Assembly (NCBI GenBank): GCA_028879995.1
Contig: GCA_028879995.1_4895.1
DNA from: a phage
Length of the DNA stretch: 52,495 bases
Reading direction: 5' to 3' (one strand)
This document shows, piece after piece, positions 1,733 through 49,645 of the stretch (the stretch's first letter is position 1; every line of letters begins with the position of its first letter). The translations under genes and the position numbers were made by a program. Under the pieces are notes generated by a model. It was not told the DNA's origin. It saw only the letters and a list, made by a program, of their open reading frames with translations, and ran no database searches.

Positions 1733-3295
1733 ATGTCGATAACCCCAAGCAGCACGCCGAACGTCGGATACCAGCGTCCTGAGCTGACTAAGAACGCTGG
1801 TAAGTACCGAATGATTAAGGACTGCATCGAGGGTCAGGAAGCTGTTAAAGCACGCGGTGATTTCTACTTGCCCCGTCCTGACCCTACGAACTGCACAGAA
1901 GAAAACATGATGCGGTATAATTCGTACCTGCGTCGCGCTGTGTTCTACAACGTACTGCAGCGAACTCTTTCGGGTATGACTGGCCTGGTATTCCAGCAGC
2001 AGCCTGAGATGCTAATGCCTGACGATATGGAAGTGCTGAAAGTAAATATCGACGGTGCAGGCATTGGTGCTATTCAGCAAATGCGTAAGTGCTTCAAGTC
2101 TGTTCTGGCTTTTGGTCGAGCAGGTCTGTTGACTGACTTCCCTAAAGCACGTATCGGTGAGTTTGGCGAGTCCATTGGCTTTACCCGTAAAGAGCTGATG
2201 GACGGAGATGTACAGCCGACAGTAACGCTGTATATGCCATGGCAGATTATAAACTGGCGAGAAGAGTATCGCAACGGTAAAGTGATGCTCACTCAAGTTG
2301 TCATTTGCGAACAGATACCGGGTGTTACTGATGGCTTTCAGCAAGACTACACACCCGTGTGGCGTCACCTTTACCTGGATGAAGAAGGCAATTGCAACCA
2401 GTCTTTGTGGGTCAATAAGGGCGACAAGAACGCGCAGAACGTCTCCGGTGGTGCGTTGTATGTCACGCAAGAAAATGTTGTCTTACGCGACTCCAATGGC
2501 TTACCGTTGAAGTTTATTCCGTTCCAGTTTATTGGTTCTGAAACAAACAGCGCTGAGATTGACCCTCCGCCGATGTACGACTTAGCTGTGCTTAATATTG
2601 CACACTACCGTAACTCTGCTGACTACGAAGAGTCATGCTTCGTAACAGGTCAACCCACAGTATGGGCGTCTGGTCTTACTGAGGCATGGGTTGAAGATGT
2701 TCTGAAGGGTGAACTGCGACTCGGTTCGTTTGGTGGTATTCCGCTGCCGGCTAACGCCGCTGTAGGTATTATCCAGACCAACCCTAACACCCAGCCGTTT
2801 GAAGCGATGAAGCAAAAAGAAGCACAGATGATTGCAATCGGTGCTCGTCTGATTCGTGAGAATGGTAAGGTAGAACGACGCGAAGTTGAGATTAAGAATG
2901 AAGCTGCATCTGAAGCTTCGCTTATCGTAACTGTTGCGCAGAACGTTGAAGCTGCTTATCGTAAAGCAATCGAATGGTGTGGCCTGTTCTACGGACACCC
3001 TAAAGAAGAAATTACGATTAACCTCAGCTACAACTTCATCTATAGCCAGTTGACTTATCAAGAACGTCAGCAACTGGTTAACGAATGGATTGCCGGTGCT
3101 ATCACGTTTAGTGAGATGCGTAGCAATCTTAAACAGGCTGGCATTGCTAAGCTCACCGACGAAGAAGCCAAGAAGCTAATTGATGAAGAGCTGGCTGAAC
3201 GCGATGCGCGTGAGGTAGCAAAAGAAGCAGAAAAGAACGCTCAAGCAGCTAAGAACAGCGATGGGCAGGAAAATAATCCAGAAAAAACTGAATAA
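1733..3295 (+). CDS. Portal protein
   Basis: 520 aa ORF immediately after terL (2-nt gap), acidic C-terminus; position and size. Confidence 0.7.
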   Translation: MSITPSSTPNVGYQRPELTKNAGKYRMIKDCIEGQEAVKARGDFYLPRPDPTNCTEENMMRYNSYLRRAVFYNVLQRTLSGMTGLVFQQQPEMLMPDDMEVLKVNIDGAGIGAIQQMRKCFKSVLAFGRAGLLTDFPKARIGEFGESIGFTRKELMDGDVQPTVTLYMPWQIINWREEYRNGKVMLTQVVICEQIPGVTDGFQQDYTPVWRHLYLDEEGNCNQSLWVNKGDKNAQNVSGGALYVTQENVVLRDSNGLPLKFIPFQFIGSETNSAEIDPPPMYDLAVLNIAHYRNSADYEESCFVTGQPTVWASGLTEAWVEDVLKGELRLGSFGGIPLPANAAVGIIQTNPNTQPFEAMKQKEAQMIAIGARLIRENGKVERREVEIKNEAASEASLIVTVAQNVEAAYRKAIEWCGLFYGHPKEEITINLSYNFIYSQLTYQERQQLVNEWIAGAITFSEMRSNLKQAGIAKLTDEEAKKLIDEELAERDAREVAKEAEKNAQAAKNSDGQENNPEKTE

Positions 3296-3300
3296 AGCTA

Positions 3301-3329
3301 TTTACTTTCGGTTTACCTGGCTATATAAT
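3301..3329 (+). promoter_or_regulatory. sigma70-like promoter TTTACT-N17-TATAAT (scaffold/capsid operon)
   Basis: Exact -35 TTTACT, 17-nt spacer, -10 TATAAT right after the portal stop. Confidence 0.55.
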
Positions 3330-3337
3330 CCTTCATG

Positions 3338-3410
3338 TCAACCGCGCAACAGCCGGCCACGAGAGTCTGCAGGGCTCAGTGGATTTCGGATGGCTGGCTG
3401 CGCGGTTTGA
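3338..3410 (+). other. Long imperfect hairpin in the 5' leader of the scaffold/capsid transcript
   Basis: Arms tcaaCCGCGCAacagcc (3338-3354) and ggctggctGCGCGGtttga (3392-3410) pair over about 11 bp with bulges around a 35-nt loop. Confidence 0.35.
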
Positions 3411-11386: not shown

Positions 11387-13516
11387 ATGTCGCTTCCACT
11401 TAATGAGGTTGTCGACGTACAGTTCAGTAAGAGCAACGGGGGTAAAGGTTTTACCCCCAATGTTCCGCTGGAAGGTATAATGCTTTCCAACTACGAGTAC
11501 TCAATCGTCGCGGGTGATGACCCTGTTCAGCTAGTTGTGCGTTACATTCCAACCAACGCTACTGAGCGTGGTATGGCATGGAAATCTAGCGACCCGGACG
11601 TTATCACTGTTGATGAGCTCGGATTTGTGAAGCCACTGGCGGAAGGTGTTGCATACGTGACTGGTACGTCTGTTGACGGCGGTTATACAGTACGGGCAAA
11701 GTTTAACATTGCTCGGGCACCTATCCTTGTTGAATCTGTTACAGTGTCTCCCACAAGTGTGACACTTGAAGAGGGCAAGACTCAACGCCTGACATACACC
11801 TATTTACCTGCTAATGCAGACAAACCTGATTTCTACTGGATTTCAGACGATGAGTCTGTTGCTGTCGTTAACGACAGCGGGCTTGTCACTGCCATTGGAG
11901 ATGGCGAAACAACTGTAAACGTACAGTACGGTGTTGACAGCTCTATATTCGATAGCTGTACTGTAACTGTTATTCCGCCTGTTGTACACGTTACAGGAGT
12001 TGAGTTTCTTACTCAGTCGCCTCTTAACGTTAATATCGGAAGCACAGCTGGGACTAGTATTCGTATATCGCCAGAAGACGCCACTGACAAAACAGTGACG
12101 TATGAAAGCAGTGTACCTGATGTAGCAACTGTGGATACTGACGGAAATGTTACTGGTATTACAGCTGGTAATGCCACTGTTACTGTTAAGACGAATGACG
12201 GTGATAAGACTGACACTCTTGACATTATAGTCAGGGTGCCTGCTGTAAATGTTACCGGCGTAAGTATTGACGAAGGCGATACAGCTTCCATGGAAGTTGG
12301 GGACACTCTTCAGCTACATGCCACTGTGACTCCTGAAAATGCTACTGACCCATCTGTTGTATGGAGTGCTCCTGTATCAGAAGTTGCGTCTGTGACTGAA
12401 GCTGGTTTGGTAACTGCTAACGCTGCAGGCTTAATTGATGTTACTGTTATCACTAATGACGGGAACTTTACTGACAGAATCGAGGTTAAAGTTACAGACC
12501 CTAGCATCGCAGTTACGGATGTTGCATGGGCTCCTGACTCTCCGACTAAAGTAAGTGCCGGCCATCAGGTGCAGACTAAAATTGTTATAACACCTAACAA
12601 CGCAACCAACAAAAAAGTTAGCTACAATAGCTCAAACCCAGACGCTGTTACTGTTGACACTAACGGAGTTATATACGGTCAATCACCTGGAACTTCGACT
12701 ATTACAGTTACAACAGACGACGGTGGACTTGTTGCTTCATTTGTAGCGACTTGCACAGAGGTGGCTGTTATTACACCAGATGGTCTTGGTGGTATTCCAG
12801 TCGGTGGTACTCAGCAGTTCACTTACACTGTTAGCCCGTCTGATGCTGACCTGACTAATATTCGTTATGAGTCTGCTAACCCAGATATTGCAACTGTTGA
12901 TTCATCAGGCGTTGTAACTGGTGTTGCTAGCGGCGGATGTAACATCTGGATTTACGCAACTAGCAATGGTGCTGACATTAGCGCAGCTACTTGGGCACAA
13001 ATTTCTGAGAAGGTACAGGTATACCCTCAGTATGCCGAATGGCTTGTGGGTAACACCAAACAGCTTGATGTTGAGATTTACCCGTCGGACTCTAAGAGCG
13101 TTACCGTTACTTATGAATCGTCAAATGACGCTATCATTAGTATAGATGCAAATGGCTTGATGACTGCTAAGTCTGAAGGTTCAGCAACTATTACTGCTAA
13201 CGTTGTGATGAACGGTGTTGCTGCTTCTGGTACAACATCTCCTTACGTGTCTGAGCTTTCTGTTGCTACTGATTCGCTGCCTGCACTTACTGTTGGCAAC
13301 ACGCAGCAGCTGGTTATAACTGTTAGACCTGAATACGCTAAGACAGACCCAGGCTATAACATTCAGTATACAACTACAGACGATACTGTCGCTACTGTAA
13401 GTAATACCGGTGTTATTACTGGCGTTGGTAACGGTGGATGTCGTATTGGTGCCACAGTAACTGTGAGAAATGCTACAGCGTCGGACAGCTCTTATCAGTC
13501 CGTCGATGCAGCATAA
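11387..13516 (+). CDS. Multi-domain Ig-like (Big_2-type) virion protein
   Basis: About seven tandem Ig-like repeats; ATG 11387 has RBS AAGGAG 7 nt upstream (tool start 11384 is TTG). Confidence 0.55.
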   Translation: MSLPLNEVVDVQFSKSNGGKGFTPNVPLEGIMLSNYEYSIVAGDDPVQLVVRYIPTNATERGMAWKSSDPDVITVDELGFVKPLAEGVAYVTGTSVDGGYTVRAKFNIARAPILVESVTVSPTSVTLEEGKTQRLTYTYLPANADKPDFYWISDDESVAVVNDSGLVTAIGDGETTVNVQYGVDSSIFDSCTVTVIPPVVHVTGVEFLTQSPLNVNIGSTAGTSIRISPEDATDKTVTYESSVPDVATVDTDGNVTGITAGNATVTVKTNDGDKTDTLDIIVRVPAVNVTGVSIDEGDTASMEVGDTLQLHATVTPENATDPSVVWSAPVSEVASVTEAGLVTANAAGLIDVTVITNDGNFTDRIEVKVTDPSIAVTDVAWAPDSPTKVSAGHQVQTKIVITPNNATNKKVSYNSSNPDAVTVDTNGVIYGQSPGTSTITVTTDDGGLVASFVATCTEVAVITPDGLGGIPVGGTQQFTYTVSPSDADLTNIRYESANPDIATVDSSGVVTGVASGGCNIWIYATSNGADISAATWAQISEKVQVYPQYAEWLVGNTKQLDVEIYPSDSKSVTVTYESSNDAIISIDANGLMTAKSEGSATITANVVMNGVAASGTTSPYVSELSVATDSLPALTVGNTQQLVITVRPEYAKTDPGYNIQYTTTDDTVATVSNTGVITGVGNGGCRIGATVTVRNATASDSSYQSVDAA

Positions 13517-41967: not shown

Positions 41968-42300
41968 ATGATAAAGCCAAAACTGTTGCGGCACATTCGC
42001 AACGGTATTAAGCTACTAGCTGAAGGTAATGAATACGCCTGCAAGCAACGCGGTATTACAAAAGTCGGCCTGTTCAATAAAGAGCTACCAACTCGATACT
42101 TTACCAAATCACCCTTAACACTCGTACCTGCAGCGGAGTACTATAAAGACCCCGAAGCAGCTCGGGCTAAAATCAAGGAAGGTCTTGACCGACTTGTAGA
42201 GGAAGGCTATTTGACAGTACGTCAACACACTGAATCATCTTATTACTACAAGCCAACTTCTAAGGTAACCAGCAATGACAATGACGAGTCAGCCGAGTGA
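41968..42300 (+). CDS. Hypothetical small protein, possible DNA-binding/replication accessory protein
   Basis: 110 aa; RBS AGAGGAG; first plus gene after the divergent promoter; overlaps primase start. Confidence 0.4.
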   Translation: MIKPKLLRHIRNGIKLLAEGNEYACKQRGITKVGLFNKELPTRYFTKSPLTLVPAAEYYKDPEAARAKIKEGLDRLVEEGYLTVRQHTESSYYYKPTSKVTSNDNDESAE

Positions 42301-44809
42301 TATTCTCGGTCTGAAATACTTTAAGCCAGAAGGGATTCCCCAAGTCTTCAAAGATATGAAGCGCTGGGCTATCTTTGAGCTGACGTACGAAGACGAGACC
42401 CTCGAAGTTCAATCCAAACCTAAGAAACCTGCAAGAGCGCCATCAGGCCGTTCCTTCAGCACAACTGTGCCTGAAGAGTGGATGACTTTCGACGACGCCC
42501 TGACACGTTGTATCCGCAATCGTGAAATGAAGATTAAAGCTGTACAGGGTAACATCACCTTTGTGCCGGCTTTGATTGTTCCTCGCCAGTGGTACTTTGT
42601 TGACCTGGACAACCATGAAGATAATCCAGACATTGAAGCTACCCACAAAGCGATAATTGAGGGGACTCGTGGCGCTTATGCCGAGACGTCAATCTCTGGC
42701 AAAGGTCAACACATCGCAATCCCTTTACCATGGACTGCAGCAACATCTAAAGAGAAAGACGACCAGCTGGACATCAAAATCCAGAAGGCTGAGATGTTCC
42801 TGGTAATGACAGGCAATGTATTGAGTGAGTTCAATGCTAATCCTGTTTCAGCCCGTGAATGGCATGCAGCAATTGAGAAGTTCTTTCTTGAATCAAGCGC
42901 ACCTGACATTGATGTTGAGTTTGAGCAAGACGAAGACTGTGGCGAAGAGTACGACAAAGAGCTGTACGAACAGTTAGCCGACAATACTCGCTGGGCGCTT
43001 GAACATTATCTTAGCGACTATGCACCTGACGGTGTTGGTGTTAGTAACGACGGTTCCGAACGTTTAAGCCGCATACTCAAAGACTTGCTTCGTGTAACCC
43101 GTAACTACGAAGTTACACAACGCATCTTCATGGCCAGCAAAGCTGCAGCATATGAAGGTCGCAGACCAAGCCGACACAACTTGTCTGTTGACAAGTACCA
43201 TCAGTGGTTCAGCCGTGTAGGTAAGACTGTGCTGAAAGAGATGCAACGTGACGGCTTATTCGTTAAGACCAAGTTTGCTCTTGACATCAACAAAGAGTTA
43301 GCCAAGAATTCAGGTGTCTCCCTGGCTGAGAACGTTGAGTTCAAGGTCAACGACGATATTCTACCTTCTGATGTATTCGTCAGGACGGCACCGTCCGGGT
43401 TTAAACGGCTTATTGCTGAGATACAGGATAACATATCTCCTGCTAACAGGGTTAACGACTATGCCATCGGCACAGCTCTTAACATCCTGAGCAACTGCGC
43501 CGGTCGCAAGTATGTTTGTCCAGTAGGCGGTCATGCTAACTTCCTGGTAACCAACATCATTCTTGTGGGTGGTTCATCTATCGGTAAATCGCTGTATACC
43601 GAGTTGTTCCCACAAATCCAGGCAAGCGTACCAGACACATCGCCTATCAGCCTTAACCGTATCCCAAGGGAACAGACTTTTGCAACCAGGACGTTTGCTG
43701 AACTGATGTCCAACCCGTCATACCATTCAGTCCAGTTGTTCTATCCTGAATTTGGTCTGGCTTTAGGTTCAGGCTTACGCATGAATCCTAACAACCCGGA
43801 CAACTTTCAGAAAGCTCTGATGGACGCTTCAACCAAGCGTAAGGTTGGCGGTATTCTGACAGGTATCAAACGTGCTAATGCTGATAATGATGTCAAGACA
43901 GTAAGCGAACCATGTTACTCTATCCTGGGCGACTCCACTCAAGAGCTTATCCTTGACAACACCCGTAAGCAAGACTTCTCAAGTGGCTTTTTGCCCCGCT
44001 TCCTGTTCATCCCGAACTACGAACGAGCGGAGTTTGCAAAACCTGAGAAGGTAGGACGTCGCCAGCAGATTCGCCGTACTCAATTCTCCAAAGAACTGAT
44101 TGAGAAGCTGGAAGCAATCGCTTATGTGAATGCTATCCCGCCTAACGGTAAACTAAGGCACGACCCGATTCCTATTTACGACGAGTCGGACGATGATGAC
44201 TTCCTGTACGAGTACCAGTGCAATATTAATGACATGCGCCAGTATTACAGGGACAACGAAGTAGCATCTGCCTTTGTGGGCCGAATGGGTGAGTATGTTT
44301 TCAATATAGCAGCACTGATCGGGTTACTCGACAACTGGGATGCTCCTGTAATGACCAGGGACAACATCGAATGGGCTTACAAATACGTTCTTCGTTGTAT
44401 AACCGCCTGGGTCAATAACACAAGCAGAATAGTCGCACCTCCGACTACTAACGCCGAAGTAGTGGACGGCTTCCTCAAAGTCTACAGGGATATTTTGGCC
44501 CTTTACGCCAAAAGCGGATGGAACGGTATTGTTAAGCATTATCCTGAAGGTGTTGTGAGAAGTATCCGAGAAGAACACCTCCAGATGAATGGTTTAAGCA
44601 TATATGCTATTCGTCAATCTTTAAGCTGGTTTAAATCAAATTATGGTTTTAATATCACAGCTAATAATAAAGTCATTGACGGAATGCTACAGGACATGAT
44701 TGACCAGGACTATTTAGCGGTTCAAATATATAAGCCCACAAGAGGCCGAACTGCTAACATTTACTGCCTGACAGAGCGAGGATATGACACTGCTAAGAAA
44801 CTAAAATAA
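42275..44809 (+). CDS. Primase-polymerase / SF3-type helicase fusion protein
   Basis: N-terminal prim-pol-like motifs (FVDLDNHE, ETSISGKGQHI), later P-loop VGGSSIGKS; 844 aa. Confidence 0.6.
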   Translation: MTMTSQPSDILGLKYFKPEGIPQVFKDMKRWAIFELTYEDETLEVQSKPKKPARAPSGRSFSTTVPEEWMTFDDALTRCIRNREMKIKAVQGNITFVPALIVPRQWYFVDLDNHEDNPDIEATHKAIIEGTRGAYAETSISGKGQHIAIPLPWTAATSKEKDDQLDIKIQKAEMFLVMTGNVLSEFNANPVSAREWHAAIEKFFLESSAPDIDVEFEQDEDCGEEYDKELYEQLADNTRWALEHYLSDYAPDGVGVSNDGSERLSRILKDLLRVTRNYEVTQRIFMASKAAAYEGRRPSRHNLSVDKYHQWFSRVGKTVLKEMQRDGLFVKTKFALDINKELAKNSGVSLAENVEFKVNDDILPSDVFVRTAPSGFKRLIAEIQDNISPANRVNDYAIGTALNILSNCAGRKYVCPVGGHANFLVTNIILVGGSSIGKSLYTELFPQIQASVPDTSPISLNRIPREQTFATRTFAELMSNPSYHSVQLFYPEFGLALGSGLRMNPNNPDNFQKALMDASTKRKVGGILTGIKRANADNDVKTVSEPCYSILGDSTQELILDNTRKQDFSSGFLPRFLFIPNYERAEFAKPEKVGRRQQIRRTQFSKELIEKLEAIAYVNAIPPNGKLRHDPIPIYDESDDDDFLYEYQCNINDMRQYYRDNEVASAFVGRMGEYVFNIAALIGLLDNWDAPVMTRDNIEWAYKYVLRCITAWVNNTSRIVAPPTTNAEVVDGFLKVYRDILALYAKSGWNGIVKHYPEGVVRSIREEHLQMNGLSIYAIRQSLSWFKSNYGFNITANNKVIDGMLQDMIDQDYLAVQIYKPTRGRTANIYCLTERGYDTAKKLK

Positions 44810-44820
44810 GTAAGTAAATC

Positions 44821-44861
44821 AAGGGCTTGGGTAATTGTAAAAATCCTAAGCCCTTATTTTT
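44821..44861 (+). terminator. Intrinsic terminator after primase-helicase gene
   Basis: Stem AAGGGCTT...AAGCCCTT followed by ATTTTTT. Confidence 0.65.
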
Positions 44862-45209
44862 TAAGCTTATTTTACAAACTGATTAATATTTAAACTATAA
44901 TTAAATATATGGGCTATAAGAGTATGATTTTATTACTCTTTTACTAACCATAATATATGGGCTCCTTATAAAAGATTAAGGGGGTAAAAAAGGGGGTACA
45001 AGTACCGGATAAAAGGGGGGATATATTTATTTATTATTATTATTATTATTATATATTATTAATTATATTAGAAGTAATAAAAACAGCTACTTAGAGGCGT
45101 CTATATGTATGATCCGGTTTATCTCTTTATTAATATCAGAACCGGATGAAAAAAATTTACGCCGGCGAAAAATAATAAAAAACCGGACTGATAAATAAAT
45201 CTGTAGACG
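44862..45209. repeat. AT-rich repeat-dense noncoding region (candidate replication origin)
   Basis: Two ATATATGGGCT copies, purine-rich AAGGGGGTA repeats (44977-45021), (TTA)n microsatellite near 45027-45051, inverted repeat ATCCGGTT/AACCGGAT (45112-45148); no ORF. Confidence 0.45.
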
Positions 45210-45238
45210 TTTACACTATAAAAAAGATGTGTTACAAT
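45210..45238 (+). promoter_or_regulatory. sigma70-like promoter TTTACA-N17-TACAAT
   Basis: Upstream of the Hjc-like resolvase gene. Confidence 0.5.
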
Positions 45239-45292
45239 ATTTATCAATGTTGCTGATTACCAAAACTTTGAATTGTATACGAGGCTGAATAA

Positions 45293-45724
45293 ATGGTTAA
45301 TATAAGACAGAAAGGACAGAACTTTGAGCGCAAAATGGCTAAGAAGTTCAATAGCTCGTTCGGATTAACTGTTGAGCGCAATCTTCAACAGTCTATTAAT
45401 GGCGGGGATGACTTGCTGGGTGTACCGTTTTTCAGTGTTGAACTGAAGAAGCACAACACCAAGTCTATCGGAACATGGTGGAGACAGTGTGCGGCGTCGG
45501 CAAAGGCTCAGAACAAGATGCCAGTGCTTATATACGAACTACCAAGAAAACAGCCTACCGTGGTGATGAATAAGGCTGATGTGATTGACTGTTTTCCAAG
45601 TGGCACGACTTTTAACGAGGCATCGAACCGCCTCTTTGTGGGTTTAGTAGAATTAACATGGGAACAATTTTGCCGGGTCTACAACTATTACGTTGCGCCC
45701 GGCACTCAATATCACGTCAATTAA
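45293..45724 (+). CDS. Hjc-like Holliday junction resolvase (PD-(D/E)xK)
   Basis: N-terminal KGQNFERKMAKKF then GGDDLLG...FSVELKK, matching archaeal Hjc-type motif order; RBS GAGG; promoter 45210-45238. Confidence 0.5.
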   Translation: MVNIRQKGQNFERKMAKKFNSSFGLTVERNLQQSINGGDDLLGVPFFSVELKKHNTKSIGTWWRQCAASAKAQNKMPVLIYELPRKQPTVVMNKADVIDCFPSGTTFNEASNRLFVGLVELTWEQFCRVYNYYVAPGTQYHVN

Positions 45725-45906
45725 TCTTGTTTCAGCTCGTCACAAATGACACGCTGATTTTTGGCAGGTATAATACCAAGATTTAGTAAGGTGTATGGAC
45801 TATCGGCGACGCATTGTTCAACGGTAGTCCATTCAGGTTTGGATTCAACAATTTCGTAATTACAGTCGTGAGCTGCAATACATGTTGACAGTATTAAGCC
45901 AATCAC
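45721..45906 (-). CDS. Hypothetical small protein
   Basis: 61 aa; GTG start overlapping upstream stop (GTGA); convergent with resolvase gene. Confidence 0.3.
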   Translation of the reverse strand: MIGLILSTCIAAHDCNYEIVESKPEWTTVEQCVADSPYTLLNLGIIPAKNQRVICDELKQD

Positions 45907-46082
45907 AAGTAATCTCCATCAACCAGAAACTCAAACAATTGGTTGTAAACGTTGCAACCTTTAGCGAAAGAGCTTTCAGCAGGTTTACCGTCGCGGACAA
46001 TCATCATATACTCACCGCCATGGATGTCCACCCAGTATTGCATGCCACCTTTGACCGGATTACGTTGCAGAAATTTAAACAT
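45903..46082 (-). CDS. Hypothetical small protein (59 aa, below the ORF-track cutoff)
   Basis: ATG 46082 with RBS AGGAGT, TAATG coupling; read by eye as MFKFLQRNPVKGG...FLVDGDYL. Confidence 0.3.
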   Translation of the reverse strand: MFKFLQRNPVKGGMQYWVDIHGGEYMMIVRDGKPAESSFAKGCNVYNQLFEFLVDGDYL

Positions 46083-46327
46083 TATTTACTCCTGATTCCA
46101 AGTTTATTCAATAACCAAATTGTCATGTCAACCCATGTTAACGGTACAGTTTTCGGGGGTTGATAATCCCAGCAGCTTGCAGTTCTTTGTATTTCTGCTT
46201 GGCGCCGCTCCGCTTCGCGTAATACCGCATCGTCAGAAGTGCCGGCAGAAAAAAGATCGGTAACACCAGATAAATCGCGTTGATTAACACGTCGAGCAAT
46301 GTCATATAAATCATCCTTAGAAAACAT
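46082..46327 (-). CDS. Hypothetical small protein
   Basis: 81 aa; ATG 46327. Confidence 0.35.
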   Translation of the reverse strand: MFSKDDLYDIARRVNQRDLSGVTDLFSAGTSDDAVLREAERRQAEIQRTASCWDYQPPKTVPLTWVDMTIWLLNKLGIRSK

Positions 46328-46503
46328 AAGCCAATACCATAAAAATTATCAGAAAGATCCCAACCAGCTTCCTCATAGCCCGACCTTCAGCATATGCAGG
46401 ATTCACAACAGAATACTCAACAACATGTTTACAGCGGACCATAAGGCCTCCACTTGTGGGTTAATTCAATCATGAGGACTTTTGGCAAATCCTCATTGTT
46501 GAA

Positions 46504-46704
46504 TCACTCCATCATTACCTGAACTATTATTATACACTCTTTATTGAAGCGGGTAAACACCTTTCCTCCATTTGTGCGTTTAGCCCCAGATTTTAGAGCT
46601 GACTGGCACCAGACATGCCACTCCTCAACTGTCAAGAATTTTTGTTCAGCTTTGGGTGGCAATCCATTGGCAAGGTCTACCGTAGTAAATTTGACTAGTG
46701 GCAT
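46504..46704 (-). CDS. Hypothetical small protein
   Basis: 66 aa; ATG 46704 overlapping upstream stop; contains a promoter-like site 46529-46557. Confidence 0.3.
   Translation of the reverse strand: MPLVKFTTVDLANGLPPKAEQKFLTVEEWHVWCQSALKSGAKRTNGGKVFTRFNKECIIIVQVMME
46529..46557 (-). promoter_or_regulatory. sigma70-like promoter (minus) TTTACC-N17-TATAAT inside small ORF 46504-46704
   Basis: Internal promoter-like site. Confidence 0.4.
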
Positions 46705-47093
46705 CACTTGACCTCAAATTTTGACTCGTCATATTCCGGATCAGTCACGTCCCGGGTAGCACAATTTTTGATTGCCTCCCAGTAACGTTGGGCATCATCA
46801 CCATCGACATAAACTGTCCAGTGGCCGTAACCACCTTCAAATCTGTCCCAGGCTTGTTCCCAGACTTTGCCATCTTCCAGCTTGTACCAAGTTGGACGAC
46901 TGTCAAACTCGCGGATTGGATGGTACCCCATCAAAGGATTCATCAGGTCAATAATGTCTTCCCGACTAATCTCCTGGTTCTCCCACAACACCGTCATGAA
47001 TTGCTCAAACTTGAAGGCGTTTGGCAGAACTTTGATGACTTCACCATCACGATATACGGTATAGGTGCCATCTTCGCATTTTGCACTGTACAT
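46704..47093 (-). CDS. Hypothetical acidic Trp-rich protein
   Basis: ATG 47093 preceded by conserved leader and hairpin cassette; 129 aa. Confidence 0.4.
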   Translation of the reverse strand: MYSAKCEDGTYTVYRDGEVIKVLPNAFKFEQFMTVLWENQEISREDIIDLMNPLMGYHPIREFDSRPTWYKLEDGKVWEQAWDRFEGGYGHWTVYVDGDDAQRYWEAIKNCATRDVTDPEYDESKFEVK

Positions 47094-47162
47094 GTTTCTC
47101 TCTCTTGTTGTGAATAATTTCAATCATGAACTATCACAATTTTGGATAGTTCATTGTTGAAA
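47094..47162 (-). promoter_or_regulatory. Conserved leader plus upstream hairpin cassette, copy A
   Basis: Perfect 8-bp hairpin GAACTATC/GATAGTTC (47128-47152) abutting a leader whose 16-nt core is identical at 47109-47124 and 47773-47788. Confidence 0.5.
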
Positions 47163-47336
47163 CTATGCTAACTTTGTTGCGATCTGAATTGTCAGCCTGA
47201 AATCTTCCATCAAGTTATCAAACTCTTTGGAACCACCAACAGCATCAGATATTTGATCTTTCACAATTTGGGCATTTGATTCCAGTAATTCAATCAGGTG
47301 CGCCAATTCGTCTTCAGTCAATTTCAGATCTTTCAT
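47163..47336 (-). CDS. Small acidic helical protein, paralog family member 3 (MKDLKLT...)
   Basis: ATG 47336 (ATGA overlap with upstream stop); 57 aa; N-terminus MKDLKLTEDE shared with two other small ORFs. Confidence 0.4.
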   Translation of the reverse strand: MKDLKLTEDELAHLIELLESNAQIVKDQISDAVGGSKEFDNLMEDFRLTIQIATKLA

Positions 47337-47591
47337 AATGCATCCACCCAAGCCATAACTTTTGCCAGTCTTACAACGTCTTCATGGTCTCGCTCGCCAT
47401 CAGAAAATTCGCTGGCGATGATACCCATAATTGACGCCAGATTCATGTTGATGATGTATGAGTGTTCCCGCACTTCATCAATTCCTGAATCTATCACCAA
47501 TTCCGCAAATTCCTGCGAACCTTCATCCCATTCAGCCCAATACTGCTCAGCATAAAAGTCCAGTTCTTTTTTTCATCTCAATATCAGTCAT
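47333..47591 (-). pseudogene. Small acidic protein gene interrupted at an A7 homopolymer (frameshift)
   Basis: ATG 47591 with RBS GAGGAG gives MTDIEMKK then stop; with A6 instead of A7 (plus 47567-47573) the frame stays open to TGA 47333-47335. Confidence 0.35.
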
Positions 47592-47596
47592 TTTGA

Positions 47597-47755
47597 TTAC
47601 TCCTCAGAACCTGAAAATTTGTCGTCAATGGCTTCAACAATATAATCAAGAGTTGAAGTGTGAGAACTATCAGAAAAAGTGCCCATCTTCTCTAACTCAA
47701 TCATCATATCCCGCAAGGCCATCGCCTGGTCTTTGGTCAGTTTGATTTTAAGCAT
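47597..47755 (-). CDS. Small acidic helical protein, paralog family member 2 (MLKIKLT...)
   Basis: ATG 47755 preceded by conserved leader/hairpin cassette; 52 aa. Confidence 0.4.
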   Translation of the reverse strand: MLKIKLTKDQAMALRDMMIELEKMGTFSDSSHTSTLDYIVEAIDDKFSGSEE

Positions 47756-47819
47756 GTTTCTCTCCTGTTGATTGTGAATAATTTCAATTGATGGCACTAC
47801 TTGAGTGCCATCTCAAAAA
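47756..47819 (-). promoter_or_regulatory. Conserved leader plus upstream hairpin cassette, copy B
   Basis: Perfect 9-bp hairpin GATGGCACT/AGTGCCATC (47790-47812) abutting the same conserved leader. Confidence 0.5.
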
Positions 47820-48386
47820 TTACTCAGTTTCTTGTTCTTCAATTTCAGGTTTTTCTTCAGTCTTAGGTTTTTCGCCTGTTACTGATTTGCCCTCAGTCAC
47901 TTTACCAGATTTTACATCATTACGGTAATAGGACATATAGGATTGGACAACACGTTTTGCCCTAATATCATCCGCTTCCATCCCACAGGCTTTCATGGCA
48001 TCAGCCAGCGCCAATTTGGAATCTTCTTTGTCCATCAAATTGTAATCCTTGAATACTGCATAGCAGGTATCTTTGGTTGACGGACCGGATGAAGTTTTGC
48101 GGGTGCCACCTGCAGATGCACGTGATGCCGCAACTTTGACCTCTTCAACTTCCAGTTGGTTAAGCTCATCAAACAAGGCTTTCACCAGCACTTCTTTTGA
48201 GTCTTTGACACTTACAGAACTTTCATCATTAAGGGACTTGATCATCTTAATGATTTGGTTATTGGCAAAGTACTGCAGGCTATCCATCTGCACTACAATA
48301 GTCCCAAGACTTTCAGTAGTCAGACCAGATTTTACAGACTCGACAGAAAAGGCGGAAGTCAGGTAAACGTAGTTAGTAGCAGTCAT
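47820..48386 (-). CDS. Hypothetical protein
   Basis: 188 aa, Lys/Glu-rich C-terminal tail; ATG 48386. Confidence 0.45.
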   Translation of the reverse strand: MTATNYVYLTSAFSVESVKSGLTTESLGTIVVQMDSLQYFANNQIIKMIKSLNDESSVSVKDSKEVLVKALFDELNQLEVEEVKVAASRASAGGTRKTSSGPSTKDTCYAVFKDYNLMDKEDSKLALADAMKACGMEADDIRAKRVVQSYMSYYRNDVKSGKVTEGKSVTGEKPKTEEKPEIEEQETE

Positions 48387-48481
48387 TTTGATGTATCCTC
48401 GTCAATAGAATTTTGGTAAGCGCCAATCCCTGGCAAGTAAGTCCAAACATGACAACTTTTGTCAAGCTGTCATGATTGAAA

Positions 48482-48661
48482 TCACTTCAATTTGTTAAGT
48501 ATTTTGGTCAATAGCTCAACTCTTTCTTCCTGGTCAGTAGGGTCAAAGTTTTCAATTGACTCCTTCCAGTCCTCCAGCAGTTCCTTTTCATTAAATATTG
48601 AAATGTCAAGAAATTCAACCAATAACTCAACTTCTTTTTTAGTCAATTTCAAATCTTTCAT
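48482..48661 (-). CDS. Small acidic helical protein, paralog family member 1 (MKDLKLT..., 59 aa, below the ORF-track cutoff)
   Basis: ATG 48661 with RBS AGAGGG; read by eye as MKDLKLTKKEVELLVEFLDISIFNEKELLEDWKESIENFDPTDQEERVELLTKILNKLK. Confidence 0.4.
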   Translation of the reverse strand: MKDLKLTKKEVELLVEFLDISIFNEKELLEDWKESIENFDPTDQEERVELLTKILNKLK

Positions 48662-48675
48662 CTTGTATGACCCTC

Positions 48676-48825
48676 TTACCCTTGATATTTGACTACTTGC
48701 GACTGGATGAAATCAACACAATCTTCCACGTCCATTGATTCAAAATCTGGAACTGGTCCATTATTAATGTTGACACACCATAGCCCTTCATTACAATCAT
48801 ACCAAAGCGTATAGTTGTCTTTCAT
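48676..48825 (-). CDS. Hypothetical small protein (MKDNYTLWYDCNEG...)
   Basis: ATG 48825 with RBS AGGAGT; 49 aa with four Cys; first gene of the leftward small-gene cluster. Confidence 0.3.
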   Translation of the reverse strand: MKDNYTLWYDCNEGLWCVNINNGPVPDFESMDVEDCVDFIQSQVVKYQG

Positions 48826-49042
48826 AATAGTTACTCCTGCTATTAGTTTCCAGGCGTGGCTACTGCTTCCAATAGCCACTAGTTGAAACTATTACCAGCG
48901 TTACTATCAACAAGAAACATGTTACCAAATTGTTAAAGAGCGGTCTGGTACTATTCGACCAGGTAAAGTTGATGTTTGCGCATCTTGACGACACGCGCCA
49001 GACAAGACGCTTGACACATTCATCATTCGTCTTGATGTAATA

Positions 49043-49071
49043 ATTATAGGCCAGTCAATCAATGTTGTACA
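49043..49071 (-). promoter_or_regulatory. sigma70-like promoter (minus) TGTACA-N17-TATAAT for the leftward small-gene cluster
   Basis: Plus-strand attata 49043-49048 and tgtaca 49066-49071. Confidence 0.45.
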
Positions 49072-49182
49072 TAAAAGAATTGCAAGTTTATGCAAGTTTT
49101 TAGAAATGATAATCACTTGCGATTGAGAGTGGTTCTCGTATGCAATTGATATAGTTTCGCATGTAATTACTCACTTCAAAAT

Positions 49183-49240
49183 GGTCGGCAGGGGTTATAA
49201 TCACATAGGGGTGCCACTTAAAGGAGCCGGCGAAATTATT
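49183..49240. repeat. Approx. 58-nt GC-rich repeat unit R1
   Basis: Shares with R2 the pattern GGT.CGGC.GGGG-TAAT-C.CA-GGGGTGC.AC.T-AGGAGCC.GC.AAATT.TTTAT. Confidence 0.5.
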
Positions 49241-49358
49241 TATAAAAATATAATTTCAATCTGAATTATAGACGCTTTGTGTTATAACGGCCGAAGTAGT
49301 TCATACGGTAATTGTATCAATCGCAATAGTTACCAAAGTAATCATTTCAATTGAAATA

Positions 49359-49416
49359 GGTGCGGCGGGGGGTAATTTCGCAGGGGTGCTACCTGCCAGG
49401 AGCCAGCAAAATTTTT
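49359..49416. repeat. Approx. 58-nt GC-rich repeat unit R2
   Basis: Second copy about 176 bp downstream of R1, same orientation. Confidence 0.5.
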
Positions 49417-49566
49417 TATTTTTTGGTATTTTCTCCTTATCAGGACCAATCATCATCAGAGTAATACGGCAGGAGCTAACCTTTTGCTTAACACAATAAT
49501 AAGTGAAGCCCCTCTAAAAATTTTTTATATTTTTCGGAAATTGTGTAGACACTCACTAAAAAGTGG

Positions 49567-49595
49567 TGTACTTTCTCTCCTCCACGCGCTATCAT
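49567..49595 (+). promoter_or_regulatory. sigma70-like promoter TGTACT-N17-TATCAT for the rightward DHFR/kinase operon
   Basis: About 40 nt upstream of the first plus-strand gene. Confidence 0.4.
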
Positions 49596-49645
49596 TAATG
49601 TGAATCATCAAACGGCCTCACGGTCTCCTACTTGTGGGTAACATT

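Follow-up and report, generated by a model that had tools for sequence, protein, structure and literature searches.

Introduction

Direct terminal repeats (DTRs) have been published for two related phages: that of Escherichia phage vB_EcoM_fHy-Eco03 (fHy-Eco03) is given as 3,699 bp from PhageTerm and restriction digests (PMC8145870), and that of Klebsiella phage AEV23 as 3,915 bp from PhageTerm (PMC12918118). In plasmid pRN1, the origin is contained in the 166 bp that follow orf904, after a putative terminator, and its authors noted similar arrangements in linear phages (PMC4234260). Here we analyze a locus that can be compared with both, the intergenic interval 44810-45292 of phage contig GCA_028879995.1_4895.1 (52,495 bp, hereafter the window), between an 844-aa gene (42275-44809) and a 143-aa gene (45293-45724). 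An initial annotation had proposed this AT-rich, repeat-dense interval as a candidate replication origin. Our best overall explanation, to which we give a probability of about one half, is that the interval is a multi-part junction and not one element, in which a terminator, a candidate origin module, a predicted left physical end of the packaged chromosome and a predicted early promoter follow one another. The genome end and the promoter, which had been missed, fill its right third and are its best-supported features.

The window is a genome of Salmonella phage BP63 (Rosemountvirus) in which the 58 nt missing from the GenBank record at the microsatellite are present. Its interval 44810-45292 is 99.5-99.7% identical to Salmonella phage BP63 and 97% identical to Escherichia phage JEP7, and it can be aligned to Loughboroughvirus and fHy-Eco03 at 70-71% over 90-96% of its length. 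The arrangement resembles that of fHy-Eco03, AEV23 and vB_SalM_Sz (Sz), all of which have the same gene order, a terminus in the gap after the primase-helicase gene at a homologous GCC^GGC (a caret marks the cut), a right end at a homologous GCY^RRC followed by a T-run, and a repeat that contains a resolvase-like gene and small early genes. The lengths of the repeat differ, with 3,699, 3,915 and 4,263 bp in these three phages, respectively, and 4,241 bp predicted in the window.

The making of long terminal repeats is poorly understood outside T7. In its predicted fixed ends with a terminal repeat, and in its predicted early promoter immediately within the left end, the window is like T7/T3 and T5/SPO1, but its repeat of 4.2 kb differs from the 160 bp or 10 kb of those systems and the T7 pac elements have no sequence similarity in the window. 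A hairpin intermediate was reportedly proposed for T7 by Chung, Nardone and Hinkle in 1990. The asymmetric motif that we find inverted at the two boundaries of the window fits the staggered-nick/extension model of terminal repeats, as summarized in the PhageTerm paper (PMC5557969).

A predicted genome end in the gap after the primase-helicase gene

Comparison with the relatives very probably places the left physical end of the packaged chromosome, and with it the DTR start, at 45163/45164 (CGCC^GGCG). The features at and inside this end are as follows.

45149-45169, plus strand: left-end cleavage motif AAAAAAATTTACGCC^GGCGAA, cut at 45163/45164
45164-49404, no strand: predicted DTR of 4,241 bp (virion DNA about 56,736 bp), both boundaries mapped by homology
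49399-49425, minus strand: right-end cleavage motif AAAAAATAAAAAATTTTGCT^GGCTCC (minus-strand reading), cut at 49404/49405
45165-45238, plus strand: A-rich UP-like tracts and predicted sigma-70 promoter TTTACA-17-TGtTACAAT (-35 at 45210-45215, -10 at 45233-45238)
45293-45724, plus strand: PDDEXK_15 or 'RusA-like resolvase' gene, 143 aa, first of the DTR (Pfam PF24608, E 5e-18; PHROG 244)

In fHy-Eco03, AEV23 and Sz the DTR start is homologous to 45163/45164 and the DTR end to 49404/49405. The right DTR copy of fHy-Eco03 begins about 360 nt past the primase stop, at ttattGCC^GGCgcaaaaag, and its counterpart in the window is tttacGCC^GGCgaaaaat, at 45161-45166. The 57,020-bp record of Sz, a close Rosemountvirus, begins and ends with the same 4,263 bp; the first base of this exact repeat is the G homologous to 45164, and its last base is homologous to 49404. 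In the AEV23 record, the two inferred cuts are 3,915 bp apart, which matches the length of the published DTR exactly. Two more records stop close to the sites, SB2 at 1 nt from the left one and LPSEYT at 7 nt beyond the right one. From these homologous termini, the virion DNA of the window is predicted to start at 45164 and to end at 49404, with a 4,241-bp repeat. Determined termini at homologous bases, a matching right boundary and a cleavage signal common to both ends thus all point to a DTR; DTRs were already published for two relatives, and the terminus in the window itself is a prediction from homology. In the AEV23 record (OR810919), an IS5-family transposase and a methyltransferase (53,895-55,637) are fused to phage DNA exactly at the left cut, so that this record looks like a chimeric assembly at the physical end.

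Restriction mapping of S144 placed a physical end in the gap homologous to 49100-49640, and a heat/cool test in the same report excludes cohesive ends (PMC7432712). For the Rosemountvirus vB_SenM-1, PhageTerm called COS (cohesive) ends near the DNA polymerase gene (PMC7503781). This call would agree with a classical iteron origin that has no role in the ends, with the physical ends lying elsewhere, for example as cohesive ends near the DNA polymerase gene, and the iteron-plus-AT-tract anatomy of the interval would fit as well. We consider this highly improbable, since fHy-Eco03, AEV23 and Sz all have a terminus at the homologous base, the S144 test excludes cohesive ends, and the cut motif recurs, inverted, at the right site. 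A cohesive-end (cos) site was rejected because relatives have kb-long exact repeats and the S144 heat/cool test was negative.

Just inside the predicted end, the promoter has 10/12 consensus matches plus a TG extension (extended -10), and by its sequence it qualifies as a promoter. The string GTAGACGTTTACAC...TG.TACAAT is kept in every relative, SOI901 included, and the BP63 and S144 records annotate a promoter at this place. It probably drives the first gene of the DTR, in which case early transcription could start once this end enters the cell. The predicted DTR contains the PDDEXK/RusA-like gene and a cluster of small low-GC early genes. Two small minus-strand open reading frames within the gap (45119-45247 and 45244-45381) are unlikely to be genes because their conservation is motif-like and not codon-like.

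An inverted motif at both boundaries

The two predicted cuts of the window share a motif in opposite orientation, namely an A-run, TTT, 1-2 nt and GCY^GGC. The left site reads GAAAAAAATTTACGCC^GGCG and the reverse complement of the right site AAAAAATAAAAAATTTTGCT^GGCT. In 8 phages from 4 lineages (the window, Sz, JEP7, S144, ZCSE2, SE4, fHy-Eco03 and Erwinia phage SOI901), the left site can be aligned with the right site once the latter is reverse-complemented. A position weight matrix (PWM) built from the left sites of five distant phages ranked the right site of the window 2nd of 104,940 positions, in exact register, and distant-phage matrices ranked the left site of the window first or second in the genome. 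Reciprocal cross-ranks were 2-15 of about 105,000 positions and varied with matrix width; all of these ranks are indicative and not formal P values, because the test was designed after the resemblance had been seen. No description of the inverted motif was found in the excerpts of the papers on fHy-Eco03, AEV23 and others cited here.

Two further sites in the right-hand gap resemble the cuts. The first is listed below.

49190-49275, plus strand: R' module with G-boxes, GGAGCC^GGCGAAA (49223) and TAGACG 37 nt after GCCGGC

R' and the left site have GCCGGC and TAGACG at the same distance from each other (37 nt). R' is without the outside A-run and is not among the reported termini, and its likeness to the left site in local alignment was not significant. 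The second, R'' (49505-49560, GCCCC^TCTAAAAATTTTTTATATTTTT...TGTAGACAC), resembles the right cut, was ranked third with a combined PWM (minus strand, at 49512) and precedes a Ku-like gene at 49634.

The left cut finishes an imperfect palindrome, which includes the inverted repeat that had been cited as part of an origin.

45096-45163, no strand: imperfect 68-nt palindrome GGCGT..ATCCGGTT..AACCGGAT..ACGCC, found by repeat search, finishing at the cut

The arms ATCCGGTT (45112-45119) and AACCGGAT (45140-45147) are present as described, but they confer no fold advantage and show no compensatory change. A hairpin or cruciform at the CCGG palindrome was rejected: the single-stranded DNA fold was no better than shuffles (z = -1.0). 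Among 11 genomes there was no compensatory change in the CCGG inverted repeat, and paired cells made up 73.5%, against 73.8% in shuffles. The CCGG half-sites are thus kept as sequence and not as a hairpin, and a hairpin of the T7 type is unsupported in the window because the palindrome by the cut is without covariation. Over 44866-45163, no significant fold was found for a structured RNA on either strand (z = -0.8 to -1.0). An Rfam scan at a permissive E-value returned only noise, with nothing near gathering score, and ARAGORN found no tRNA.

A conserved module outside the end

The module G-box / AT tract / AAAACAGCTACTTAG spans 44978-45095, between a variable spacer and the palindrome.

44866-44977, no strand: variable AT-rich spacer with both AATATATGGGCT copies, replaced in some lineages
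44978-45020, plus strand: three G-boxes (AAGGGGGTAAAA, AAGGGGGTACAA, AAAAGGGGGGAT), candidate protein-binding repeats
45021-45072, no strand: AT-only low-complexity tract including (TTA)7, a candidate unwinding element and the least stable duplex in the genome
45073-45095, plus strand: conserved block AGTAATAAAAACAGCTACTTAG directly after the AT tract, in 15/15 aligned genomes and SOI901

All of the motifs listed for the interval in the initial annotation were found at their places, including the very AT-rich sequence after the primase terminator. The 100-nt windows at 44856 and 45021 have 18% GC and are the two lowest in the genome. Stability is lowest at 45021-45080, which is the least stable 60-mer duplex in the genome, with a nearest-neighbour free energy (dG, 60-nt windows) of -51.2 against a genome mean of -82.0 (standard deviation (sd) 4.7; 6.5 sd below). 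This easily melted DNA directly adjoins the G-boxes, as expected of an unwinding element. The microsatellite in it, (TTA)7 at 45031-45051, is the sole trinucleotide microsatellite found by TRF in the whole genome (13 TTA copies scored). The suggestion that it might vary in length was borne out by genome comparison, in which one relative, brunost, has about 5 extra units, and every relative has an AT-rich microsatellite at the same place, with differing repeat units.

The repeats that had been read as iterons fared differently from one another. The purine-rich copies, AAGGGGGTA at 44978 and 44990 and AAAAGGGGGG at 45011-45020, fall in the genome's densest cluster of G-runs, and three G5+ runs in the region are above chance (P = 0.014, dinucleotide shuffles). 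Successive G-boxes start 12 and 23 nt from one another, and ACCGGAT lies between the second and the third. There are only three of them and their spacing is uneven; they are found in most relatives and after four of the ten distant homologues described below, being conserved in Rosemountvirus and Loughboroughvirus and partly in fHy-Eco03, and absent in SOI901. The direct repeats are also present, as the 12-nt AATATATGGGCT at 44904 and 44952, but at chance level, and the first copy lies in the stretch 44870-44950 that has been swapped for other sequence in the yarpen, birk, SE13 and S144 lineages. We therefore rejected the two copies of ATATATGGGCT as iterons (P = 0.095 for a 12-nt repeat in dinucleotide shuffles; not conserved). 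Two of the four iteron and repeat arguments for an origin, this one and the CCGG inverted repeat, thus fail, being neither significant nor conserved; the unwinding tract, the G-boxes, the initiator-like gene and the distant loci described below continue to speak for it.

Across 15 genomes, the order from spacer to left cut is the same: G-boxes, ACCGGAT, AT-only microsatellite and the block AGTAA..AAAACAGCTACTTAG. A distant sample consisted of contigs with ten primase-helicase homologues at 24-38% identity. In 5/10 of these loci, a similar module lies downstream of the gene: at 200-400 nt past the stop codon, GC content falls to its minimum in the locus (6-14% in a 50-nt window), and a G-rich or GC-rich patch precedes this minimum. 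The patches before the AT tract are as follows.

L032: GAGGGGGGTAGGGGGGTCAGAGGGGGGTCA
L031: six AGGGTAA copies and inverted copies
L027: four GGGG(G)T boxes
L029: GAGGGAGCCGAAAAAGGGGGTATAG
L028: GC-rich, without clear G-boxes

In L028 and L032, where the primase has 28% and 24% identity, respectively, AAAACAAC(T/C)ACTT immediately follows the AT tract, at the same place and in the same orientation as AAAACAnC(T/C)ACTT in the block of the window. Gene order downstream differs in L028, which indicates that the module accompanies the primase gene there and not the resolvase-like gene. No description of a conserved module after this PrimPol-helicase family was found in the excerpts of the papers cited. 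A DUF7173 gene lies beside the PrimPol-helicase gene in 5/10 distant loci (L028, L030, L032, L033, L034), often followed by AAA_24, and may be a conserved partner in the replication module.

These comparisons also bear on whether the interval is an ordinary spacer, with the terminator and the promoter as its sole functional parts, an AT tract and repeats that are low-complexity drift, and record ends that are assembly artefacts. The 12-nt repeat and the inverted repeat lack support and 44870-44950 is freely replaced between lineages, as such a spacer would predict, and the BP63 record does break at the microsatellite, with a start point that swi3, IntR and SD350 copy. The gap is nevertheless alignable at 70-71% to Loughboroughvirus and fHy-Eco03, the block and the order of the module persist to 24-28% primase identity, and three DTR determinations agree to the nucleotide. 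We therefore judge a mere spacer improbable.

The G-boxes raise the alternative that 44978-45163 is a packaging signal and not an origin. The small terminase would bind the G-boxes, the bendable AT tract would aid assembly, the terminase complex would cut at 45163/45164 and the same G-boxes would direct the cut at 49404/49405. The right cut has G-boxes GGGGGGTAAT and AGGGGTGC at 15-40 nt on its inner side, and GGGGGTA-type boxes are found there and before R' in 9/9 genomes aligned; three of the 9 G5+/C5+ runs in the genome are in 44810-45292 and one is at the other DTR boundary. Boxes of this type, rare in the genome, thus lie left of both DTR cuts and of R', the stretch immediately flanks the mature left end on the outside, a place for a possible recognition site that would not be packaged along with this end, and L027 has a G-box 15-20 nt ahead of a cut-like CCCGCC^CGCAAAA. 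However, the G-boxes are about 150-185 nt away from the cut on the left side and about 35 nt away on the right, SOI901 retains the cut motif without left-side G-boxes, and the module trails the primase-helicase gene in distant phages with different neighbours (L028), which fits a replication module better. A packaging signal in place of an origin appears unlikely on balance; the origin and packaging readings are not mutually exclusive. Elsewhere in the genome, GGGGGTA is found only as an inverted pair, GGGGGTA..TACCCCC, at 11438-11458, probably a terminator hairpin in the structural operon.

The upstream gene, its terminator and known origins

The gene that the module follows, and its terminator, are listed below.

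42275-44809, plus strand: PrimPol-helicase gene, 844 aa, with AEP primase-polymerase, helix bundle, AAA+/DUF3987 helicase and a predicted C-terminal winged helix (about residues 773-842)
44821-44862, plus strand: intrinsic terminator of the primase-helicase gene, with an 11-bp stem, a 13-nt loop and a T-run

The label primase-helicase given to this gene proved right, as judged from AEP and Walker A motifs and fold matches. The protein matched PHROG 3022 'DNA primase' (E 1e-187). A full HMMER scan gave 585 relatives, and in an alignment made from 71 sequences D110, D112, S139, H146, G437 and K438 were invariant; these belong to the AEP PrimPol motifs (D110xD112, SxSGxGxH146) and Walker A (G437K438). 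Distant members of the family match the NrS-1 polymerase helix-bundle domain and DUF3987. The AF2 model (mean pLDDT 82.9) matched NrS-1 primase-polymerase 6a9w (E 4e-8) and MCM subunits (E about 1e-5) in Foldseek, and its residues 773-842 are modelled as an E-H-H-H-E-E-H winged-helix arrangement (pLDDT 86-95). On this model, the protein would have the architecture of a self-contained initiator. The terminator has a hairpin stem (44821-44831/44845-44855) and a T-run (44857-44862), an RNA fold of -26.3 kcal/mol (z = -5.3) and both arms changing together among relatives (GGGCTT/AAGCCC and GGACTT/AAGTCC), as is expected of a Rho-independent terminator.

This arrangement recalls pRN1, in which a replicase gene is followed by a terminator (44821-44862 in the window) and then a downstream cis element (in the window a candidate, 44978-45095). 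ORF904 of pRN1 combines prim/pol, SF3 helicase and a C-terminal winged helix (PMC4234260), the same three-part architecture as the window protein if its predicted winged helix is correct. The two systems differ in that the pRN1 element forms a stem-loop of about 100 nt that must be intact, whereas the window has no significant fold and instead has repeats and an AT tract, and in that the window helicase matches DUF3987/MCM-like AAA+ folds. The origins of P4 alpha and lambda O resemble the window in their short direct repeats and AT-rich tract beside the initiator gene. P4 has ori and crr as two separate repeat clusters, and a second repeat cluster about 4 kb away in the window (G-boxes at the right site and R') recalls this ori and crr arrangement. 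The alpha protein binds the ori iterons via a winged helix (PMC4234260). P4 primase is of the Toprim type and its iterons are unrelated in sequence, while the window has only three G-boxes, spaced 12 and 23 nt apart, as candidate binding sites.

The presence of the module downstream of 5/10 distant homologues, together with the pRN1 precedent, makes an origin plausible. G-box repeats that adjoin the genome's easiest-melting DNA, in a module linked to an initiator-like gene over deep divergence, argue in the same direction. That 44978-45095 is the origin, or one origin, is in our view a tentative assignment, a little short of an even chance. GC skew was rejected as an origin marker: its cumulative minimum is near 49 kb and not at 44810-45292, and it says nothing about the origin because it follows coding-strand switches.

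Other features of the predicted repeat

Several relatives have extra genes in the stretch that separates the left cut from the resolvase-like gene, namely an Ant-like gene in birk and in the SPLA phages, an HNH gene in LPSEYT and a 65-aa open reading frame in fHy-Eco03 (positions 2700-3360 of locus L002 and 2971-3168 of L009 in the relatives). The birk insertion starts at a point homologous to about 45200 and has its own promoter-like sequence.

A 60-nt block at 49100-49160, TTAGAAATGATAATCACTTGCGATTGAGAGTGGTTCTC...GATATAGTT, is nearly invariant in Rosemountvirus, Loughboroughvirus, fHy-Eco03 and SOI901 and is better conserved than the flanking genes; it may be a promoter/operator between divergent early clusters. 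Within the DTR, a diverged 63-nt direct repeat (47281-47343 and 48606-48668, 73% identity) and several shorter repeats mark the 5' ends of small minus-strand genes, which suggests paralogous early genes or a common start region.

The public record of BP63

Against BP63, the right-hand gap 49100-49620 of the window is 100% identical. The BP63 GenBank/RefSeq record (KM366099) lacks 58 nt across the (TTA)n tract, corresponding to 45032-45089 of the window (52,437 and 52,495 bp, respectively). Its last letters are ...GGGGGTATATATTTATT and its first letters ACTTAGAGG, so that this linear record was opened at an assembly break caused by the microsatellite. The swi3, IntR and SD350 records copied their start point from BP63. 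The ends of these four records were therefore rejected as termini, being assembly or convention breaks at the microsatellite. Only the SB2, AEV23, PEA2-3 and LPSEYT records end near the true sites. Another record, PP583539 'Listeria phage 220426122051' with the stated host Listeria monocytogenes, is about 96% identical to this Salmonella/E. coli phage group over the right-hand gap, and its host label looks doubtful.

Nine of 10 restriction enzymes failed to cut fHy-Eco03 DNA, and the authors suspect a DNA modification of unknown type (PMC8145870). If the phage of the window has this modification too, restriction mapping of its ends would be affected.

Discussion

We propose that the interval works as a series of adjoining parts. 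The primase-helicase transcript would stop at the intrinsic terminator (44821-44862). The PrimPol-helicase would bind 44978-45095 via its predicted C-terminal winged helix, open the duplex and prime. The left physical end would lie at 45163/45164, with the 4,241-bp DTR running to 49404, and the A-rich tracts and extended -10 promoter (45210-45238) would drive the first repeat gene. The symmetry of the motif at the two boundaries is observed; from it we infer one strand-specific nicking activity, which would nick the top strand at the left site (after ...TTTACGCC) and the bottom strand at the right site (after ...TTTTGCT). An asymmetric site in inverted orientation would automatically place the nicks on opposite strands. 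Staggered nicks and extension would then generate the terminal repeat, as for phages of the T7/T5 type.

Besides the COS call for vB_SenM-1, several results weigh against this explanation. In SOI901, clear G-boxes are missing at the left site, although AT tract, block and cut site are all retained. In the other 5/10 distant loci, a gene directly follows the primase and no such module was found in the fetched flanks. There are no DnaA boxes in the region, and the IHF consensus has none above chance, with one chance-level match inside the terminator stem. The G-boxes also adjoin the right boundary and R', and they may therefore serve end formation and not initiation. The winged helix of the 844-aa protein is a model prediction, and the PWM ranks carry the qualification given above. 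In within-genome local alignment, the left region and the right-hand gap scored 25-27 against 22.8 ± 2.3 for shuffles, which is not significant; paralogy of the two was rejected on this score.

A more far-reaching version of the junction couples the origin module and the terminus mechanistically, so that replication initiation and DTR regeneration would be one reaction. The G-box/AT-tract, which lies some 100 nt beyond the left boundary on its outer side, would serve to load the PrimPol-helicase, a nick at A7TTTACGCC^GGCG would start rightward strand-displacement synthesis across the 4.2-kb repeat, and the inverted nick motif at 49404/49405 would do the converse. We regard this coupling as decidedly unlikely, but if it were true, one asymmetric motif in two orientations would specify both reactions.

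Rosemountvirus, a genus used in biocontrol of Salmonella and E. coli, has BP63 (Rosemountvirus BP63) as its exemplar species. The public record of BP63, like most records returned by searches, omits the terminal repeat of about 4 kb and has an arbitrary start point, which the placement of the terminus corrects. Ends at 45164 and 49404 would define the true chromosome (about 56.7 kb) and which genes exist in two copies. The inverted cut motif and the conserved module are modest, testable additions. The motif common to both ends is a concrete, mutable hypothesis for how long terminal repeats are made, and the G-box/AT-tract/block that accompanies a widespread phage PrimPol-helicase family offers a candidate origin of defined extent, 120 bp, that is testable with one initiator protein.

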